The position numbers and the translations under genes are program-made. The notes below the pieces were generated by a model. The model was given only the letters and a program-made list of their open reading frames with translations, searched no databases and was not told the origin of the DNA. From NCBI RefSeq assembly GCF_001677475.2, contig NZ_CP015229.1: DNA of 64,000 nt. The stretch is one strand, 5' to 3'. Shown one piece after another: positions 55,405-64,000 of this stretch; positions within the stretch are counted from its first letter, which is position 1, and each line of letters opens with the position of its first letter. Source of the DNA: Escherichia coli (GTDB lineage: Bacteria > Pseudomonadota > Gammaproteobacteria > Enterobacterales > Enterobacteriaceae).

Positions 55405-56811
<1,407 letters not shown>

Positions 56812-56878
56812 GCCGATATGATGCGCCAGCATCGCATCCGGCACTGGCTCCCAGGCCACGCCAGATGCGCCATGCTGG
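56812..56878. repeat. REP-like palindromic element at xseA 3' junction
   Basis: gccgatatgatgcgccagcatcgcatccggcac... fills the gap between the xseA stop and the stop of the convergent giant gene. Confidence 0.6.
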
Positions 56879-59800
56879 TTACTGGAAGCAGGTAACCAGA
56901 CCCGGTTTATTCATTAGCGTGATACTACAATCCTGTGCTCCAGTGCCTTCGTCCATCCCACACTGTTGAGAGGACAAATAAGGAAAACTTGGTGAAGACG
57001 GCCATCCCAGTGAATTAAAAACAGTATGCAACAACTCTAATTCATTGTATGTCGGTGCATTTTCTATGCTGCCACACTGCCTTGCGATATCCCATTTACT
57101 GGCATCAATGATATGTGCAGAAGCCCAGTTTTCGTAGTTAATAAACGGTGAGGATACGGGATTAGCCCCGGACGGCAATTCCGTCGTTAACAACGGTCGA
57201 TGTAGCGATTTACCATTCACCACTACCGTGTCTGCCATATGTCCCCAAAAGTGCGCCGAGGAAACATTCGGGCTGGTTGGCACCGTAAAAATAGCGTCCA
57301 GCGTGTCTGTCGCGGAAGCGTAATTAGCCAGAGTAACCGTCAGTGGCGTTTTATAACCAGGGGTATTATCCTGGCGGAGCGTAAAACTTGCCGTCCCATC
57401 AGCGCCTGTCATGCCACTAATGGTATTACCGCTTTCACTCAGCGTAATAGCCGAACCAGATAACGGCTGAACGATGAGATCGTCCATCGCCACCACATCA
57501 CCATACAACGTTGCCCCAGCGTTACGCGGCGATGCCTCACCACGTTTCAAAGTAAACTCCACATTCGGCACCGTATTCCCGGCGCTGTCTTTCACCGTCA
57601 CGGTAACGGGCATGGCTTCGCCTTTTTTCACTTTCGCCGCCTGGCTGTCAGCATCAAACGCTGTTGAGGTCAGTGTGACGCTGGAAACCGTCGCGCGCGC
57701 AGACACCAGGCACGCCTGATAAGCGGTATTAACATTCAATGTCGTCAAGCCATTTTTCATATCGAGCGACTGATTTTTGCCATCTGTAGTCTTATCCTGC
57801 GCCCACCAGCCATAATAAACTGACCAGCCAGTTTCCGTCGTAAAGGTGTTATTGGGATAACGTTGATACAGTGACTTCATATCGCTGAGCAACGGTTGTC
57901 GTGCTTCTTCACAGGGGCTGAGGCTGGCATTTGCTTTGGTTGTTGCTGAGAAATAGGGCCAGTCCTCATTATTGTTACTGATTTTATTCACCCCGGAGGT
58001 CGATGGCAGCTCTTTCCACAATTTCGGTCGTTCAAAGACGGTTCCATTTGCCGCTGTCACCGTTTCTGGCATATGGCCCCAGTAGTTGGCATCCGGAGTG
58101 TCAGGGCTGGTGACCACGGTAAATATCAGGTCCAGGTTTGACGTGATCTGCGGATCTTGTGCAAGCGAGACCGTAAACGGCGTTGCCAGGCCAGTGGTGT
58201 TGTTTTGCGTAACATTGAACGTCACAGTGCCATCACTGCCGGTAAAGCCAAGCCATTTTGCCGTATCCTGAGCAAAGGAAATGCTGGCTGCTGTCGGTGT
58301 GACGACATTTACAATAAGATCATCTGCCGAAGTAGATGAGGGCTTATTCCCTGTACGGTTTTTCGACTGCGCCCGCTGAAGCGTCACGCTCTCACCACTC
58401 ACCAGGTTGCCATTTTGGTCTTTTACTGTCACGACTAACGGGATTGTCTCGCCCTTTTTCGCCGATGCCGAAGGTGTGCCACCGTTGCTGGCGGTTTTCG
58501 TCTCATCAAATGCGGCTGACGTGAGAGTCACGCTTGATGATAAAGCGTGAGGCTGCGTCAGACAAAGCATCAGAGCAGACGGATAGAGAGAAGATGAAGG
58601 TTGTCCTGTTTTCAGGTTAATGACCTGATAATACCAGGACGTGCCACTAAGAGTAAGCTCATAAGTCCACCAGTTTCCGGCTGTTGTCGGCACCCCCAGA
58701 TCTGTCGTTATCGCCCCGTTAGGGTGATCGTTATAAAGCCCCTGCAACTCGCTGAGGCGCGGTTGATATTCCAGTGGGCAATCTGCCGTCGCTTTTTGAG
58801 TGTTGGATATATATGACCATGTCTCATTATTACCATTTACCGAGCTCCCCGAAGTTGCTTCCGCTGCCAGTAATGGGCGCTTGAAGGTCACGCCTGCCGA
58901 GCTGGTAAACGTTTCCGGCATATGGCCCCAGTATTTCGCTTTTGGCGAATCCGGGCTGGTTATCACCGTGAAAATGACATCCAGCGTGGCGCTTTTTGAG
59001 GTGTCGCGCATCAATGTTGCAGTGAGCGGGGTTGCGAACCCATAACTGCCGTTTTGGCTGACCTCAAACGTAGCTTTACCATCGCTTCCTGTCTTCAGAA
59101 GAGCCTGCGTCCCATCCTCATACAAGATTGACGTTACCCCGGTAGGCTCCAAAGGCACGATGGTAAGATCATCTGCAGAGGCATTGTACGCAGCTTTAGC
59201 GCGATTCAGCGCAGTCCCACGTTTAAGGTTAAAGCTGGCACCTGGCAGTGGATTGCCTGCGCTATCTCGCACCGTAACCGTCATCGGGATAACCTCTCCC
59301 TTCTTCGCCGTTGCACTGGGCCTGCCATCATTGCTCGCCGTTTTCGTTGCATCCTCTGCCGTTGAGGTCATCTCAATAGAAGCCGCCTCTGGATGAGGGT
59401 TTACCAGGCACAGCATTAATGCCGAGGTGGTTGAAGACGCTCTTCCACTTGATCCATTTAACAGAGAAATATATTGATCGTACCACTTACCCGCATATGC
59501 CACCACGTCGTAAGCCCACCAGTAGCTATTCACTGGAATACCCAGATCGGTCTTTATCGCACGACTTGGATGTTCGTCGTACAATGCCTGGAGTTCGCTT
59601 AACAGCGGTTGATAATGTACATCGCACCCGCTTTTATCTGCATCCCCCTTTGTTGCCGATTTCAACAATCCCCATGTTTCATTGTCTTCTATGACTCCAG
59701 ATTCTGACGATGTTTCGCTCTTGAGTAGTGGACGCCTGAAGGCAATCCCGGAACGCGTAGTGAACGTTTCCGCCATATGCCCCCAGTAACTTGCCAGGGG

Positions 59801-62800
59801 AGTATCCGGGCTGGTTATCACAGTAAACATCACCGGTAATTTGTTGGATTCCAGGCTCGACTGATAGGCCTGAGCGTACACATTGGTTACCAGGCCTATA
59901 GAATCATCCTGCTTTACCGTAAACGTGGCCGTTCCATCCGCGCCCGTCACCGCATAAAGCAAGATTGATGAACTATCCATTCTTGCCGACGTCCCCGCGG
60001 CGTTGATTACGGTGATAGTTCTGTTCAACATCAGTGTATTCTGGCGATTTGTCGATCCTTCACGTTTGAGAATAAACGGAACATTTGGTACGACATTTCC
60101 CTGCGCATCTTTGGTCACCACGCGAATCACCGCGTCGTCACCTTTTTTCCGTTTTAGTGCGCTGAGGGTTTCGTCAACTTTGACAAATTGTGTCGAATCG
60201 TTCGCTTCGACAATAATTTGGCTGGTCATCGCCACTGGGGTAGCCCGACAGCTTAGCAGACCTATACTGCTTGGCATGATCTCCGATTCATAACCAGTCT
60301 TCAACGAAACCGCTTTAAAATTAAAGGCTTGAGTATAATAGGCGACTGCCGTACTGGAGATATAGGCACGTGATACAGGCCATCCCGTAACGTCATGTAT
60401 TGGCGTGTAACCTTCATCGGCATACAATGACTCAAGTTCATTGTCAGCCGGGACATATCCTGCACCGCAACCATTTACAGATGTGTTGTTCGACTGGTCC
60501 GGCGAGAACAGTGACCATTCCTCTCCATCTTCCTGAAAATAGTTTCGACTAGCTGTAACGGTAAGCTCATCTTGCAATAACGGTCTTTTATAAATAAGCC
60601 CGCCAGCACCGGTCATCGTTTCGGCCATATGCCCCCAGAATTTTGCTTTAGGGGTATCGGGGCTGGTTATCACCGTAAAGACCACCGGAAGCATTGATTT
60701 TACGTTATTATCTGTATCCAGCATGGCGGTCAGTTCGGTTTTTAAACCTGTGGTATTGTCCTGTTTCAGTGCAAGTGTTGTCGTACCATCTGCGCCGGTA
60801 ACGCCATAAATCAGTGCTGTTGTTGAGGAAAAATTACTCTGCGTATTACCCCAGGCATCCGTCACGATGAGCGCGCCTGCTGTCACCGTTGTAGACGCAT
60901 TTGCCCGATTGACGCTAAGGTTACGTTTAAGCGTAAACGCGGTATTTCCCACCGGGTTACCCTGCGCATCTTTAGTGGTCACGCGAACCACGACTTCTTC
61001 CCCTTTTTTCGCTTTGACAACATTATTCGTACTGTCAAATTTTGTAGGGTCCGCAGCCTCAAGAACGATTTGGCTTGCCTTAACGATCGGCGTCGTCTGG
61101 CAGGTAAGCAGTTCTTTTGTGGCCGATGGAATTATCGAACTGGTACCTGAACTGAGATTGACGGCCTTGAAGTCACGCTGTTCCAGACTACTGCTGCCTG
61201 TCGTGCTGGTAAGGTAACTTGAGGCGACGGGCCAGCCCTGAACCGTTTTCATCGCATTGCCGCGGTTAGCTTCATACAATGACTCCAGCCCAACCTGAGA
61301 GGGAACATATTCACTACCGCAACCATTAGAGGATGTGCTTGTCGCCTGAGTTTGGGTAAATTGCGCCCAGTCCTCATTCTCTTCTGCAATCGCTGTTCGA
61401 CCCGACGTACTGGATAACTCTTTCAACAATAATGGGCGCTTAAAGACCGTTCCATCCGCAGCCGTCACCGTTTCCGGCATATGTCCCCACATTTTCGCTT
61501 TATTGCTGTCCGGGCTGGTGACAACGGTAAAAATGGTATCGAGGGTCGCTTTTTTCGTTGTGTCTGAATAGAGCGCGGCGGTCAGCGACGTTTTCGTGCC
61601 ATGGGTATCCGGGCGGGTAATAGTGAGAATTTTAGTGCCATCGCTGCCGGCCATCGCGCTGTATGCTGCGGCGGTATCATTGAGCGAAGTTTCATCCGCC
61701 AGGCCACTATTGATCACAACCGGCGCAACCAGCGCATCACCGCTACCGGCAATGTGTTTTTCGTTTGATCGGGTATAACCATCGCCACGCTTCAGGGTAA
61801 AAGGCATATCACCCAATGGATTGCCCTGAGCATCTTTTACCGTCACCTTCACCTGTAGCGTTTCGCCTTTTTTCAGCTTCGCCGCATTTGCTGCCGCGTT
61901 CCACTGCGCCGGGTCCACCACTTCCAGCGTAATGCTGTTGGCAGGATTGTTAGCCGTCGTCAGGCAACTGACATAAACCGCCGTGCTACCGCCAACGGTC
62001 CGCGCGCCATCGTTGAGGGCTATGGTGTAGTAATGCGGCACCTGATCCGCGGGCGAACTGCTCCAGTAGGGCTGACGCTGCGTTGGCCAACCGTGTACCG
62101 TTTGAACGGCGTTACCGCTGTAAGCATCATAGAGCGCGTTAAGCTGGGAACGGCGTGGGAGCATATTGGCACCACAGCCACCTTTACTGGTGCTGGAAGT
62201 GTTGGCCTGGCTAACGCGCGACCACACTTCGTTATTTTCCGTTAATGTGCCGTCCGGGCTGGACACTTCCGCAGCCAGCCGGGATCGGGCAAAGGTTAAT
62301 GCATCGACGGTAATCGTCTCATCCATATGCCCCCACATCTGCGCGCCAACCGCATCCGGACTGGTGAGCGTAGTGAAAATCACATTGTAATTAACAGTAT
62401 TGGGAATATAGGAGTTTACAGGCGCAATATTCAGCGGCGTCGCTAAGCCCACACCTTGCGGTTGCTTAATTTCCACAGTAGCAAAACCCTGCGCATCCGT
62501 AGTACCTGCATAGACTAAAGACGGTTGCGATGTTCCGTAGAGCGTGCCATTCATCTCGATTGCGCCGCGGGTTGGATCATCGAAACCCGTGGTCTGCCCC
62601 TGACGATTTTTCCCCATATCTTTCGTGATGGTGAACGCGGTATACGGCACGGGCGCATTATTCAAGGCATTAAAGGTGCGTACCGTCATGGTAATCGTTT
62701 CACCCACTTTCGCCTGCGCTCTGCTGCTTGTGGAAACATCATGATCGGTGGTCGCAGCAATCTGGGCGACCATCTCATTGCCCGAACAAGAAAGGTAGTT

Positions 62801-64000
62801 TTGCTTAAAGCCGGAATAGGTGTCGATGTTGCCCGTGGCCAGGTTCACCGACGCATGCGACGTCTCTTCCACCGCACTAAGATACGCTTTTTGCAACGTT
62901 GGCCAGCCATATTCGGTGCCGATGACATTGGCTGGATGTGCGGCAAACAAACTGTGCAATGAGCTTTGGCTCGGAATATGACCTAAACCACACTCAGCCT
63001 GCATACTGCTATTCTGATCAAACAGCGCCCAGTCTTCGTTATTTTCCCGCACTGCTCCCAGTTCGTTGTCGGTTTCATCCGCCAACCGTGGGCGTTTAAA
63101 GATATTGTTCGCTTCAATAATGCCTAACATATGTCCCCACATCCGCGCTTTGTCGGAATCAGGGCTGGTGATCACCGTAAAAATAACGTCTTTCTCATCC
63201 GAAGCGGTAAAATCACTGCGCATTTTCGCGGTGATGTGAGTTTTCACCCCCACTCCGCCTGGCTGGGTCAGCGTCAGAGAGGCCTCTCCGTTAGCATCAG
63301 TGATCCCTTCATAGATATGGGCGTCAACTTTGCGAACGTTACTGCCGCCATCAATTTGTACCGGGTGCGTCTCCCACGCGGCGTCAGTTTGATTCTTACG
63401 GTTAACGCCGTCATCCAGATGCAGCGAAAAGTAGTAGTAAGCCAGCGGCTGATCGTTGTTCTTGCTATCGGTAATCGTCAGGCGTAAAGAAGCCTCTTCC
63501 CCCACCTTTACTTTCATCGCTTTTATCGTCGAATCATAACTGCCCGGCGTCAGTACCAGCTTCGGTTCAACATCGGGCGCTTCTTTATCGACACAGCTCA
63601 CAATAAACGTCGTATCGTCCGGTTTTTGCGCTTCGCTGCGGTTCGAAACATCCGCCGCATGGTGCTGGCCGCTCATCCCCGCCAGTGATGACCAGTAGTA
63701 GTTCCCCTGCATCGGCCAACCAGCCACATCCTGCACTGACGTTGGCACCACCGTCGCCAGCGCACCGAACTGACGCATTCCGGGCAAAATGTCGCAATGT
63801 TTATCCGCGCCGCTCCAGGTAAAGGTGGACCAGGTTTCATTGTGATCGTTAACCGTACCGTCTTCATTATCGACTTCCGCCGCCAGTTTTGGTCGACTAA
63901 AAGTGTAATCACGGGCCTTCAGCGTATCGGGCATATGACCCCACATTGTAGCCTGCGGGACATCCGGGCTGGTGAGGACGGTAAAGATCACTGCCGTTTC
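56879..64000 (-). CDS. giant tandem-repeat surface protein, RatA/RatB-like (bacterial Ig-like Big_1 domains alternating with a conserved Cys-containing module); C-terminal >2370 aa only, 5' end beyond window
   Basis: Single minus-strand ORF with no stop from the window edge to TAA at 56879; nine ~805-855 bp repeats each encoding FTV(I/V)TSPD..WGHM..NE.W..C..LY..GWP then KKGE..VTV.D..GN..F.LKR..G.DGT..F; codon usage like host; not present at this site in K-12. Confidence 0.85.
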   Translation of the reverse strand, partial: ETAVIFTVLTSPDVPQATMWGHMPDTLKARDYTFSRPKLAAEVDNEDGTVNDHNETWSTFTWSGADKHCDILPGMRQFGALATVVPTSVQDVAGWPMQGNYYWSSLAGMSGQHHAADVSNRSEAQKPDDTTFIVSCVDKEAPDVEPKLVLTPGSYDSTIKAMKVKVGEEASLRLTITDSKNNDQPLAYYYFSLHLDDGVNRKNQTDAAWETHPVQIDGGSNVRKVDAHIYEGITDANGEASLTLTQPGGVGVKTHITAKMRSDFTASDEKDVIFTVITSPDSDKARMWGHMLGIIEANNIFKRPRLADETDNELGAVRENNEDWALFDQNSSMQAECGLGHIPSQSSLHSLFAAHPANVIGTEYGWPTLQKAYLSAVEETSHASVNLATGNIDTYSGFKQNYLSCSGNEMVAQIAATTDHDVSTSSRAQAKVGETITMTVRTFNALNNAPVPYTAFTITKDMGKNRQGQTTGFDDPTRGAIEMNGTLYGTSQPSLVYAGTTDAQGFATVEIKQPQGVGLATPLNIAPVNSYIPNTVNYNVIFTTLTSPDAVGAQMWGHMDETITVDALTFARSRLAAEVSSPDGTLTENNEVWSRVSQANTSSTSKGGCGANMLPRRSQLNALYDAYSGNAVQTVHGWPTQRQPYWSSSPADQVPHYYTIALNDGARTVGGSTAVYVSCLTTANNPANSITLEVVDPAQWNAAANAAKLKKGETLQVKVTVKDAQGNPLGDMPFTLKRGDGYTRSNEKHIAGSGDALVAPVVINSGLADETSLNDTAAAYSAMAGSDGTKILTITRPDTHGTKTSLTAALYSDTTKKATLDTIFTVVTSPDSNKAKMWGHMPETVTAADGTVFKRPLLLKELSSTSGRTAIAEENEDWAQFTQTQATSTSSNGCGSEYVPSQVGLESLYEANRGNAMKTVQGWPVASSYLTSTTGSSSLEQRDFKAVNLSSGTSSIIPSATKELLTCQTTPIVKASQIVLEAADPTKFDSTNNVVKAKKGEEVVVRVTTKDAQGNPVGNTAFTLKRNLSVNRANASTTVTAGALIVTDAWGNTQSNFSSTTALIYGVTGADGTTTLALKQDNTTGLKTELTAMLDTDNNVKSMLPVVFTVITSPDTPKAKFWGHMAETMTGAGGLIYKRPLLQDELTVTASRNYFQEDGEEWSLFSPDQSNNTSVNGCGAGYVPADNELESLYADEGYTPIHDVTGWPVSRAYISSTAVAYYTQAFNFKAVSLKTGYESEIMPSSIGLLSCRATPVAMTSQIIVEANDSTQFVKVDETLSALKRKKGDDAVIRVVTKDAQGNVVPNVPFILKREGSTNRQNTLMLNRTITVINAAGTSARMDSSSILLYAVTGADGTATFTVKQDDSIGLVTNVYAQAYQSSLESNKLPVMFTVITSPDTPLASYWGHMAETFTTRSGIAFRRPLLKSETSSESGVIEDNETWGLLKSATKGDADKSGCDVHYQPLLSELQALYDEHPSRAIKTDLGIPVNSYWWAYDVVAYAGKWYDQYISLLNGSSGRASSTTSALMLCLVNPHPEAASIEMTSTAEDATKTASNDGRPSATAKKGEVIPMTVTVRDSAGNPLPGASFNLKRGTALNRAKAAYNASADDLTIVPLEPTGVTSILYEDGTQALLKTGSDGKATFEVSQNGSYGFATPLTATLMRDTSKSATLDVIFTVITSPDSPKAKYWGHMPETFTSSAGVTFKRPLLAAEATSGSSVNGNNETWSYISNTQKATADCPLEYQPRLSELQGLYNDHPNGAITTDLGVPTTAGNWWTYELTLSGTSWYYQVINLKTGQPSSSLYPSALMLCLTQPHALSSSVTLTSAAFDETKTASNGGTPSASAKKGETIPLVVTVKDQNGNLVSGESVTLQRAQSKNRTGNKPSSTSADDLIVNVVTPTAASISFAQDTAKWLGFTGSDGTVTFNVTQNNTTGLATPFTVSLAQDPQITSNLDLIFTVVTSPDTPDANYWGHMPETVTAANGTVFERPKLWKELPSTSGVNKISNNNEDWPYFSATTKANASLSPCEEARQPLLSDMKSLYQRYPNNTFTTETGWSVYYGWWAQDKTTDGKNQSLDMKNGLTTLNVNTAYQACLVSARATVSSVTLTSTAFDADSQAAKVKKGEAMPVTVTVKDSAGNTVPNVEFTLKRGEASPRNAGATLYGDVVAMDDLIVQPLSGSAITLSESGNTISGMTGADGTASFTLRQDNTPGYKTPLTVTLANYASATDTLDAIFTVPTSPNVSSAHFWGHMADTVVVNGKSLHRPLLTTELPSGANPVSSPFINYENWASAHIIDASKWDIARQCGSIENAPTYNELELLHTVFNSLGWPSSPSFPYLSSQQCGMDEGTGAQDCSITLMNKPGLVTCFQ

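Follow-up and report, generated by a model that had tools for sequence, protein, structure and literature searches.

A RatA-like protein with nine lectin-like adhesion domains encoded beside xseA in Escherichia coli and its possible export by SinH

Our analysis of a 64,000-nucleotide (nt) stretch of Escherichia coli DNA (assembly GCF_001677475.2, contig NZ_CP015229.1; hereafter the window) supports a model in which the ratA-like gene that fills the last 7.1 kb of its minus strand (positions 56879-64000) probably codes for a Sec-exported, multivalent lectin-like adhesin that is moved across the outer membrane by SinH; in this model, we infer the secretion route, the surface location, and the ligand. 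Judged by curated family models, the fragment is the E. coli “RatA-like” equivalog and not Salmonella RatA or RatB proper. The gene, previously described in E. coli and annotated there, is the last one of the sinH–sinI–ratA (“ila”, CS54-type) island between xseA and yfgJ, and its product is an inverse-autotransporter passenger “tip” domain multiplied nine times, without a barrel of its own.

An earlier note on this DNA, made from the sequence alone, had described an uninterrupted minus-strand open reading frame (ORF) of >2370 amino acids (aa) still open at the window edge, and translation confirms it: a single reading frame runs through 2373 sense codons to a stop at 56879-56881 and is open at base 64000 (the ORF listing, which takes the first possible start, gives 56879..63991(-), and the same frame continues open to base 64000). 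Because the chance of such a frame is (61/64)^2373, or ~1e-50, an origin by chance is excluded. The 5′ ~920 nt of the gene fall outside the window and the segment comprises the 3′ 88% of it; the part beyond base 64000 was judged from orthologous loci and not from the window’s own contig.

The repetitive architecture is seen at two levels. The motif FT(V)xTSP(D/N) occurs nine times, at residues 6, 274, 542, 824, 1108, 1392, 1677, 1960, and 2238, spaced 268-285 aa apart, and Pfam recognizes nine InvE_AD “adhesion” domains (PF05689; E 1e-16 to 1e-39) in strict alternation with eight BIg21 immunoglobulin (Ig)-like domains (PF05688; E 1e-18 to 1e-25) (Table 1; domains are numbered by residues of the window translation, and Pfam was run as two queries, between which InvE_AD domain 5 was split). 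The window ends at base 64000, before the Ig-like partner of the first adhesion module is reached. Thus, of the nine tandem pairs of Ig segment and module proposed earlier, all nine adhesion modules are present, but only eight have a complete Ig partner in the window. Similarly, the segments taken for invasin/intimin-type Ig domains are Ig-like by Pfam and by fold, but their Pfam family is BIg21, and the match to Big_1 is marginal only (best E 0.0014).

Each adhesion domain carries the signature FTVxTSPD, WGHM, RP.L..E, NE.W, C, LY, GWP, C. Columns invariant in all nine units include F1, T2, T5, S6, P7, W15-G16-H17-M18, R32, L35, and E38 as well as E53, W55, C71, P77, L85, G99, and C144, and among these C71 and C144 are the two Cys residues conserved in each domain; the terminal unit (aa 2238-2373, 136 residues) has four Cys where the others have two. 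Because the nine units are only 32-46% identical to each other in pairwise protein comparisons and their DNA matches are short, at 75-83% identity, they are old, diverged repeats and not the product of recent amplification. A slippage-prone tandem DNA repeat was rejected on the same figures.

The earlier note had suggested structure prediction of one repeat unit as a check, and an AlphaFold2 model of unit 4 (the adhesion domain and the following BIg21) was obtained with high confidence (predicted local distance difference test, pLDDT, 95.9; predicted template modeling score, pTM, 0.87). In fold comparison, the Ig part of this model matches Ig domains of invasin, intimin, FdeC, and the macroglobulin type, and the adhesion domain has a C-type-lectin-like fold, such that Pfam and fold comparison both bear out the idea of an Lcl- or lectin-like module. 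An Ig-domain passenger ending in a C-type-lectin-like tip domain is a feature of type Ve secretion, and the RatA-like protein possesses it. In InvE of Yersinia pseudotuberculosis (PDB 5N40), an inverse-autotransporter adhesin, one such tip domain ends a passenger carried on its own β-barrel, whereas the RatA-like protein lacks a barrel and strings nine tip domains together in tandem; a literature search for PDB 5N40 returned no relevant paper. The match of the window protein to the C-terminal domain of Legionella Lcl is marginal (Pfam Lcl_C, E 0.13), and Lcl as well as other folds of the C-type-lectin-like and formylglycine-generating enzyme (FGE)-like kinds have only ~10-17% identity to the adhesion domains and a different conserved signature.

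Support for the assignment to the RatA-like family comes from the NCBIfam equivalog model NF011844 (“RatA-like protein”), which the fragment matches in one colinear stretch with 4711.5 bits against a cutoff of 3870. The match spans model positions 308-2683 of 2683, and the cutoff is passed even though the first 307 positions lie outside the window. By contrast, the cutoffs of the Salmonella RatA model NF011843 (1613.2 bits vs 3700) and of the Salmonella RatB model NF011842 (1918.1 bits vs 4079) are both failed, each with five separate stretches, and good alignment to these models stops at approximately residue 1130-1165 of the window translation, taking in units 1-4. The models also differ in length, with 1860 and 2435 positions for Salmonella RatA and RatB, respectively, and 2683 for RatA-like. 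Hence, the identification as a RatA/RatB-type protein made in the earlier note holds for the family and not for the Salmonella proteins themselves. These share with the RatA-like protein a signal peptide, an N-domain, and repeated BIg21 and InvE_AD units, and their genes occupy the same chromosomal site beside xseA, downstream of sinH–sinI (PMC3739510); Salmonella has both ratA and ratB, whereas E. coli has a single rat gene and no shdA. The RatA-like protein of the ila locus in E. coli (NF011844/PRK15316; e.g., WP_116836398.1 of strain N3) is the same gene, with the nine-module architecture and the xseA flank. Family membership is narrow: a profile of the unit searched against 1.84 billion cluster representatives found 450 proteins only (E up to 0.001). 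They have two architectures, a Rat type with a leader of ~150-190 residues, a BIg21 domain, and then two to ten further units, and an InvE-like type of ~700-2300 residues with one BIg21 and adhesion domain at the extreme C-terminus.

For the part of the protein beyond the window we rely on strain N3, the best DNA match among 5426 complete E. coli genomes (96.8% over the gene). The N3 gene has 8040 nt and codes for 2679 aa; the window protein aligns colinearly to residues 308-2679 with 96% aa identity and one single-residue indel. The ~306 N-terminal residues outside the window comprise, in N3, a Sec-type signal peptide, MSLTLNKILVLCALLISAMLPGWSWA, a small β domain, and the first BIg21. Of the full layout of signal peptide, N-domain, and nine BIg21–InvE_AD pairs, the window protein matches NF011844 model positions 308-2683, and the part for positions 1-307 is seen in the 96%-identical orthologue. 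The gene order in N3 is xseA, the adhesion domain-containing protein, a SinI family protein, sinH, a yfgJ-type zinc ribbon, and der; the earlier note had placed the N-terminal region and any partner genes outside the window. Because residues 1-213 of the orthologue match no Pfam family, no β-barrel and no two-partner secretion (TPS) domain is seen in it. The NCBIfam inverse-autotransporter models match SinH and not the orthologue’s N-terminus, BLASTP of this N-terminus against SinH gave no match, no TPS domain (β-helix, Pfam Haemagg_act) was found in it, and a search for structural relatives of the N-domain found none. The possibility that the protein is a genuine inverse autotransporter whose N-terminal 12-stranded β-barrel lies beyond the window edge was therefore rejected, as the orthologue has no barrel, and so was a classical TPS substrate (TpsA, type Vb), as the orthologue has neither a TPS domain nor an N-domain with a structural relative.

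The chromosomal position had been read in the earlier note as an xseA-proximal site equivalent to that of CS54, and orthologous loci with the order xseA, rat, sinI, sinH, yfgJ, der bear this out. In the literature, the E. coli island is named the “ila” cluster (sinH–sinI–ratA), is placed between xseA and yfgJ, and is traced to CS54 of Salmonella (PMC12928451); it was described earlier in Shiga toxin-producing E. coli (STEC) O117 (PMC3739510), and the ila locus has been described in uropathogenic and avian pathogenic E. coli (UPEC and APEC; PMC12928451, PMC12525524). A scan of species-representative genomes with an alignment of Rat N-termini recovered 19 loci, distributed over Escherichia (E. 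albertii and E. whittamii included), Citrobacter, Pseudocitrobacter, Superficieibacter, and Leminorella. Sixteen of these and the N3 locus have enough upstream DNA to be informative, and in 17/17, from at least five genera, sinH, sinI, and rat follow in that order on one strand with short gaps; at least 13 of the 17 have the island between yfgJ/der and xseA. In the window itself, rat is convergent with xseA, and the sinI/sinH side was judged from these 17 loci since the window ends at base 64000. SinH passes its own equivalog model, while SinI matches the SinI family, the SinH C-terminus, and, weakly, the ZirU family (E 5e-7). The Leminorella locus has two tandem rat genes (L019:9881-20553), like ratA and ratB of Salmonella. 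One further sinH–sinI–rat contig (JAIJJM010000381.1, 3119 bp; locus L002) is filed under a metagenome-assembled genome of “Collinsella sp.”; its Rat N-terminus is 100% identical to that of E. coli N3, and the contig almost certainly comes from E. coli and was wrongly binned.

The two barrel-less proteins of the island have a feature in common. Directly after their signal peptides, Rat and SinI proteins carry a 22-residue motif, LK(S/G)GxWQ......T(G/D)xIxGTxP, which is present in RatA-like and SinI of N3 and also where the rat and sinI ORFs begin in loci L004-L020. Its consensus is LKSGQWQIVSxSTGTIQGTVPW in SinI (85 non-redundant proteins) and LK(S/G)GxWQxLxxxTGAINGTxP in Rat. A matrix built from Rat only has its best site at residues 25-39 in 79/85 SinI proteins (median z-score vs shuffles ~7), and among 1539 ORFs of 20 loci, scores >17 are reached only by Rat and SinI, the best unrelated ORF scoring 14.6. 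In agreement with this, a single BLASTP comparison of the RatA-like N-terminus with SinI aligns the residues following the signal peptides (E 0.021). An “EF” or “xI” variant before GT covaries between SinI and Rat of one locus, a covariation that may reflect a single clade. AlphaFold gives the motif segment a pLDDT <50, as expected for a flexible extension. We did not find the motif mentioned in the literature consulted, in which the Rat N-terminal region is described as highly divergent (PMC4943183). We tentatively suggest, from the conservation pattern, that the motif could be a cargo-recognition tag by which SinH selects and exports Rat and SinI. If so, this would be type Ve-based two-partner secretion with a recognizable signal, and the long-standing ZirT/SinH “translocase” hypothesis would become directly testable.

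Table 1 Coordinates of the ratA-like gene, its domains, its flank, and the N-terminal motif (window positions; entries prefixed L001 refer to the orthologous locus of E. coli N3)
Feature	Position	Strand	Remark
ratA-like gene, 3′ part	56879..64000	(-)	7122 nt; residues 308-2679 of the 2679-aa orthologue, plus stop
InvE_AD domain 1	63590..63967	(-)	aa 12-137; Pfam E 2.4e-28
BIg21	63170..63490	(-)	aa 171-277; Pfam E 6.8e-24
InvE_AD domain 2	62783..63163	(-)	aa 280-406; Pfam E 6.6e-29
BIg21	62369..62704	(-)	aa 433-544; Pfam E 4e-24
InvE_AD domain 3	61961..62359	(-)	aa 548-680; Pfam E 3.1e-32
BIg21	61520..61867	(-)	aa 712-827; Pfam E 6.7e-25
InvE_AD domain 4	61100..61513	(-)	aa 830-967; in unit modeled by AlphaFold2
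BIg21	60668..61003	(-)	aa 1000-1111; in unit modeled by AlphaFold2
InvE_AD domain 5	60248..60661	(-)	aa 1114-1251; Pfam
BIg21	59816..60139	(-)	aa 1288-1395; Pfam E 5.1e-18
InvE_AD domain 6	59405..59809	(-)	aa 1398-1532; Pfam E 9.9e-32
BIg21	58961..59299	(-)	aa 1568-1680; Pfam E 1.7e-23
InvE_AD domain 7	58589..58954	(-)	aa 1683-1804; Pfam E 7.5e-34
BIg21	58112..58453	(-)	aa 1850-1963; Pfam E 1.4e-23
InvE_AD domain 8	57710..58105	(-)	aa 1966-2097; Pfam E 1.5e-31
BIg21	57281..57622	(-)	aa 2127-2240; Pfam E 8.3e-23
InvE_AD domain 9, C-terminal	56960..57271	(-)	aa 2244-2347; Pfam
Spacer xseA/ratA-like	56812..56878	(.)	67 bp between convergent stops; repetitive extragenic palindrome (REP)-like palindrome gatgcgccagcatcgcatc
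xseA	55435-56811	(+)	Conserved island flank; convergent with ratA-like; guaB and guaA precede it, as in E. coli
Motif in RatA-like (residues ~27-50)	L001:28735-28806	(-)	Orthologue, outside window
Motif in SinI (residues ~28-51)	L001:29830-29900	(-)	Orthologue locus

In our model, the RatA-like protein would be exported by Sec, as the signal peptide seen in orthologues suggests, and the two conserved Cys residues of each adhesion domain would form a disulfide in the periplasm. The inverse autotransporter SinH would then act as the translocator that passes the protein across the outer membrane, as ZirT does for ZirS and ZirU, with the mature-N-terminal 22-residue motif as the candidate recognition tag for this step. 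Outside the cell, the protein would form a long, multivalent adhesin, its nine diverged lectin-like modules binding host or matrix ligands, probably glycans, while the gut or the urinary tract is colonized. The operon logic is that of Salmonella ZirT–ZirS/ZirU, in which a barrel protein comes first and Sec-exported partners without a barrel come after it. Export of ZirS and ZirU by ZirT is an experimental precedent, as cited in PMC4943183, whereas export of SinI and Rat by SinH is hypothetical, and the RatA-like protein is ~10× larger than ZirS or ZirU. By analogy with ZirT–ZirS/ZirU, Heinz et al. proposed Rat-like proteins and SinI as inverse-autotransporter substrates (PMC4943183), and Goh et al. 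raised the same translocator possibility for IatB, the E. coli SinH orthologue (PMC6714894).

Several points weigh against this model. IatB is able to bring about biofilm formation on its own, with no need for the downstream gene (PMC6714894), the barrel lumen of inverse autotransporters is filled by the protein’s own linker, making a translocase role mechanistically awkward (PMC4943183), and in E. coli E69 a split sinH (L010:5850-8837) lies next to an intact rat gene. The literature consulted yielded no direct evidence for Rat secretion, surface exposure, or SinH-driven transport. The adhesion domains lack the EPN/QPD and WND motifs by which true C-type lectins bind sugar and Ca (by inspection of the consensus and the invariant columns of alignment A2, 48 repeat units cut from family members of two database searches), which also sets these domains apart from Lcl and the other C-type-lectin-like and FGE-like folds, and glycan binding is therefore a guess from the fold. 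Moreover, the 5′ end, sinI, and sinH of this copy lie beyond the window, in which its intactness is not visible.

The IatB activity, the blocked lumen, and the E69 locus, together with orthologues that have no canonical TPS domain, would also fit the same adhesin leaving the cell independently of SinH, by another secretion system, in vesicles, or through lysis, with sinH, sinI, and rat as independent surface factors that share an island. We consider this rather unlikely given the invariant sinH–sinI–rat order on one strand with short gaps at all 17 informative loci across genera, the mature-N-terminal motif common to the two barrel-less proteins of the operon, and the precedent of ZirT.

It is less likely still that the RatA-like protein stays in the periplasm or envelope, for example as a scaffold or as a lectin for the cell’s own glycans, and is no host adhesin. 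The pair of BIg21 and adhesion domain is the distal tip of surface-displayed InvE and of many family proteins with a single adhesion domain, and a stalk of ~18 domains would suit a protein that extends well away from the cell; yet orthologues show a Sec signal only and no recognizable outer-membrane targeting domain, and no ligand is known for RatA-like. A Salmonella ratA mutant (Kingsley 2003) is said to have had no colonization phenotype. On the other side, colonization and invasion phenotypes are reported for the locus (PMC12928451, PMC10048834): ila mutants of UPEC are attenuated in a mouse model of urinary-tract infection (Shea et al. 2022, as cited in PMC12928451), and Salmonella RatB is needed for cecal colonization in mice (Kingsley et al. 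2003, as cited in PMC10048834). PMC3739510 likewise gives an overview of locus phenotypes. The statement of the earlier note that the family is essentially uncharacterized applies to ligand and export and not to mutant phenotypes, which are reported for the UPEC locus and for Salmonella ratB.

A relative of the gene is detectable in 1739/5426 complete genomes and a colinear full-length copy in 936/5426; by best-match identity, 378 lie at 95-97%, ~551 near 85%, and ~810 are more divergent and match the gene only in part. Every copy is chromosomal, with a single copy in 1737/1739 genomes (1741 places); the 936 colinear copies are annotated as “adhesion domain-containing protein” or “DUF823 domain-containing adhesin”. 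Adhesion-domain counts vary between genomes from ~6 to 10. No complete E. coli genome matches the window allele at more than 96.8% DNA identity. Against the N3 orthologue, the overall ratio of nonsynonymous to synonymous divergence (dN/dS) is 0.29, and the ratA-like gene is under purifying selection. Synonymous divergence (dS) per unit ranges from 0.01 to 0.13 and is highest in units 5-8 (window 57290-60679; 91-95% aa identity, dS 0.09-0.13), as compared with units 1-4 and 9 (60680-63985 and 56882-57289; 97-99% aa identity, dS 0.01-0.08). This mosaic divergence suggests recombination between rat alleles; together with the dN/dS ratio, it is the pattern of a functional surface-type gene whose alleles undergo intragenic recombination.

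Disrupted copies exist elsewhere: an IS3-family insertion element interrupts rat in E. coli EcPF15 (H20), and a frameshift splits it in E. coli SCPM-O-B-8794 (L012:9995-16419). Together with the split sinH of E69 and a 5′ end not visible in the window, they would be compatible with the present copy being a decaying pseudogene, either interrupted in the part beyond the window or left orphaned after sinH or sinI was lost. With 7.1 kb uninterrupted, colinearity with the family model, a single one-residue indel relative to the orthologue, and a dN/dS of 0.29, we regard decay as improbable.

With respect to the surroundings, K-12 has yfgJ and der directly after xseA, and the ratA-like content is therefore absent from K-12; the label of non-K-12 content given to it earlier is correct in this sense, although among E. 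coli the gene is common and already annotated. Its GC content (51.5%) is close to that of the remaining window (52.2%), and hence a recent foreign origin is unsupported. A scan of 56600-57100 for promoter and terminator consensus sequences found none, including no intrinsic terminator in the 67-bp spacer, an Rfam scan of the whole window gave nothing at gathering score, and the 90 nt at the window end had 0 exact matches in 100,044 species-representative genomes. The core genes of window 1-56811 are at best 98.3-98.7% identical to any of the 5426 complete genomes; the source is a poorly represented lineage. The guaA–guaB–xseA stretch beside the island reaches at best 97.7% identity, and 1267 genomes match it at 90-95%; the island flank looks recombinogenic. 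Window 25001-50000 (hyf operon to pdeF) is partly variable among E. coli, because only 4288/5426 complete genomes cover ≥80% of it.

Finally, we note that for annotation the gene is routine: a curated model covers the family, Pfam recognizes the domains, the structure of a homologous domain has been solved, and phenotypes at the level of the locus are published. SinH is under investigation as a vaccine antigen against extraintestinal pathogenic E. coli (ExPEC; PMC9937491, PMC12525524), and for the largest protein of its island the ligand, the location, and the export route are a real gap. Nine diverged lectin-like tip domains on one stalk and an N-terminal motif common with SinI provide handles for experiments.

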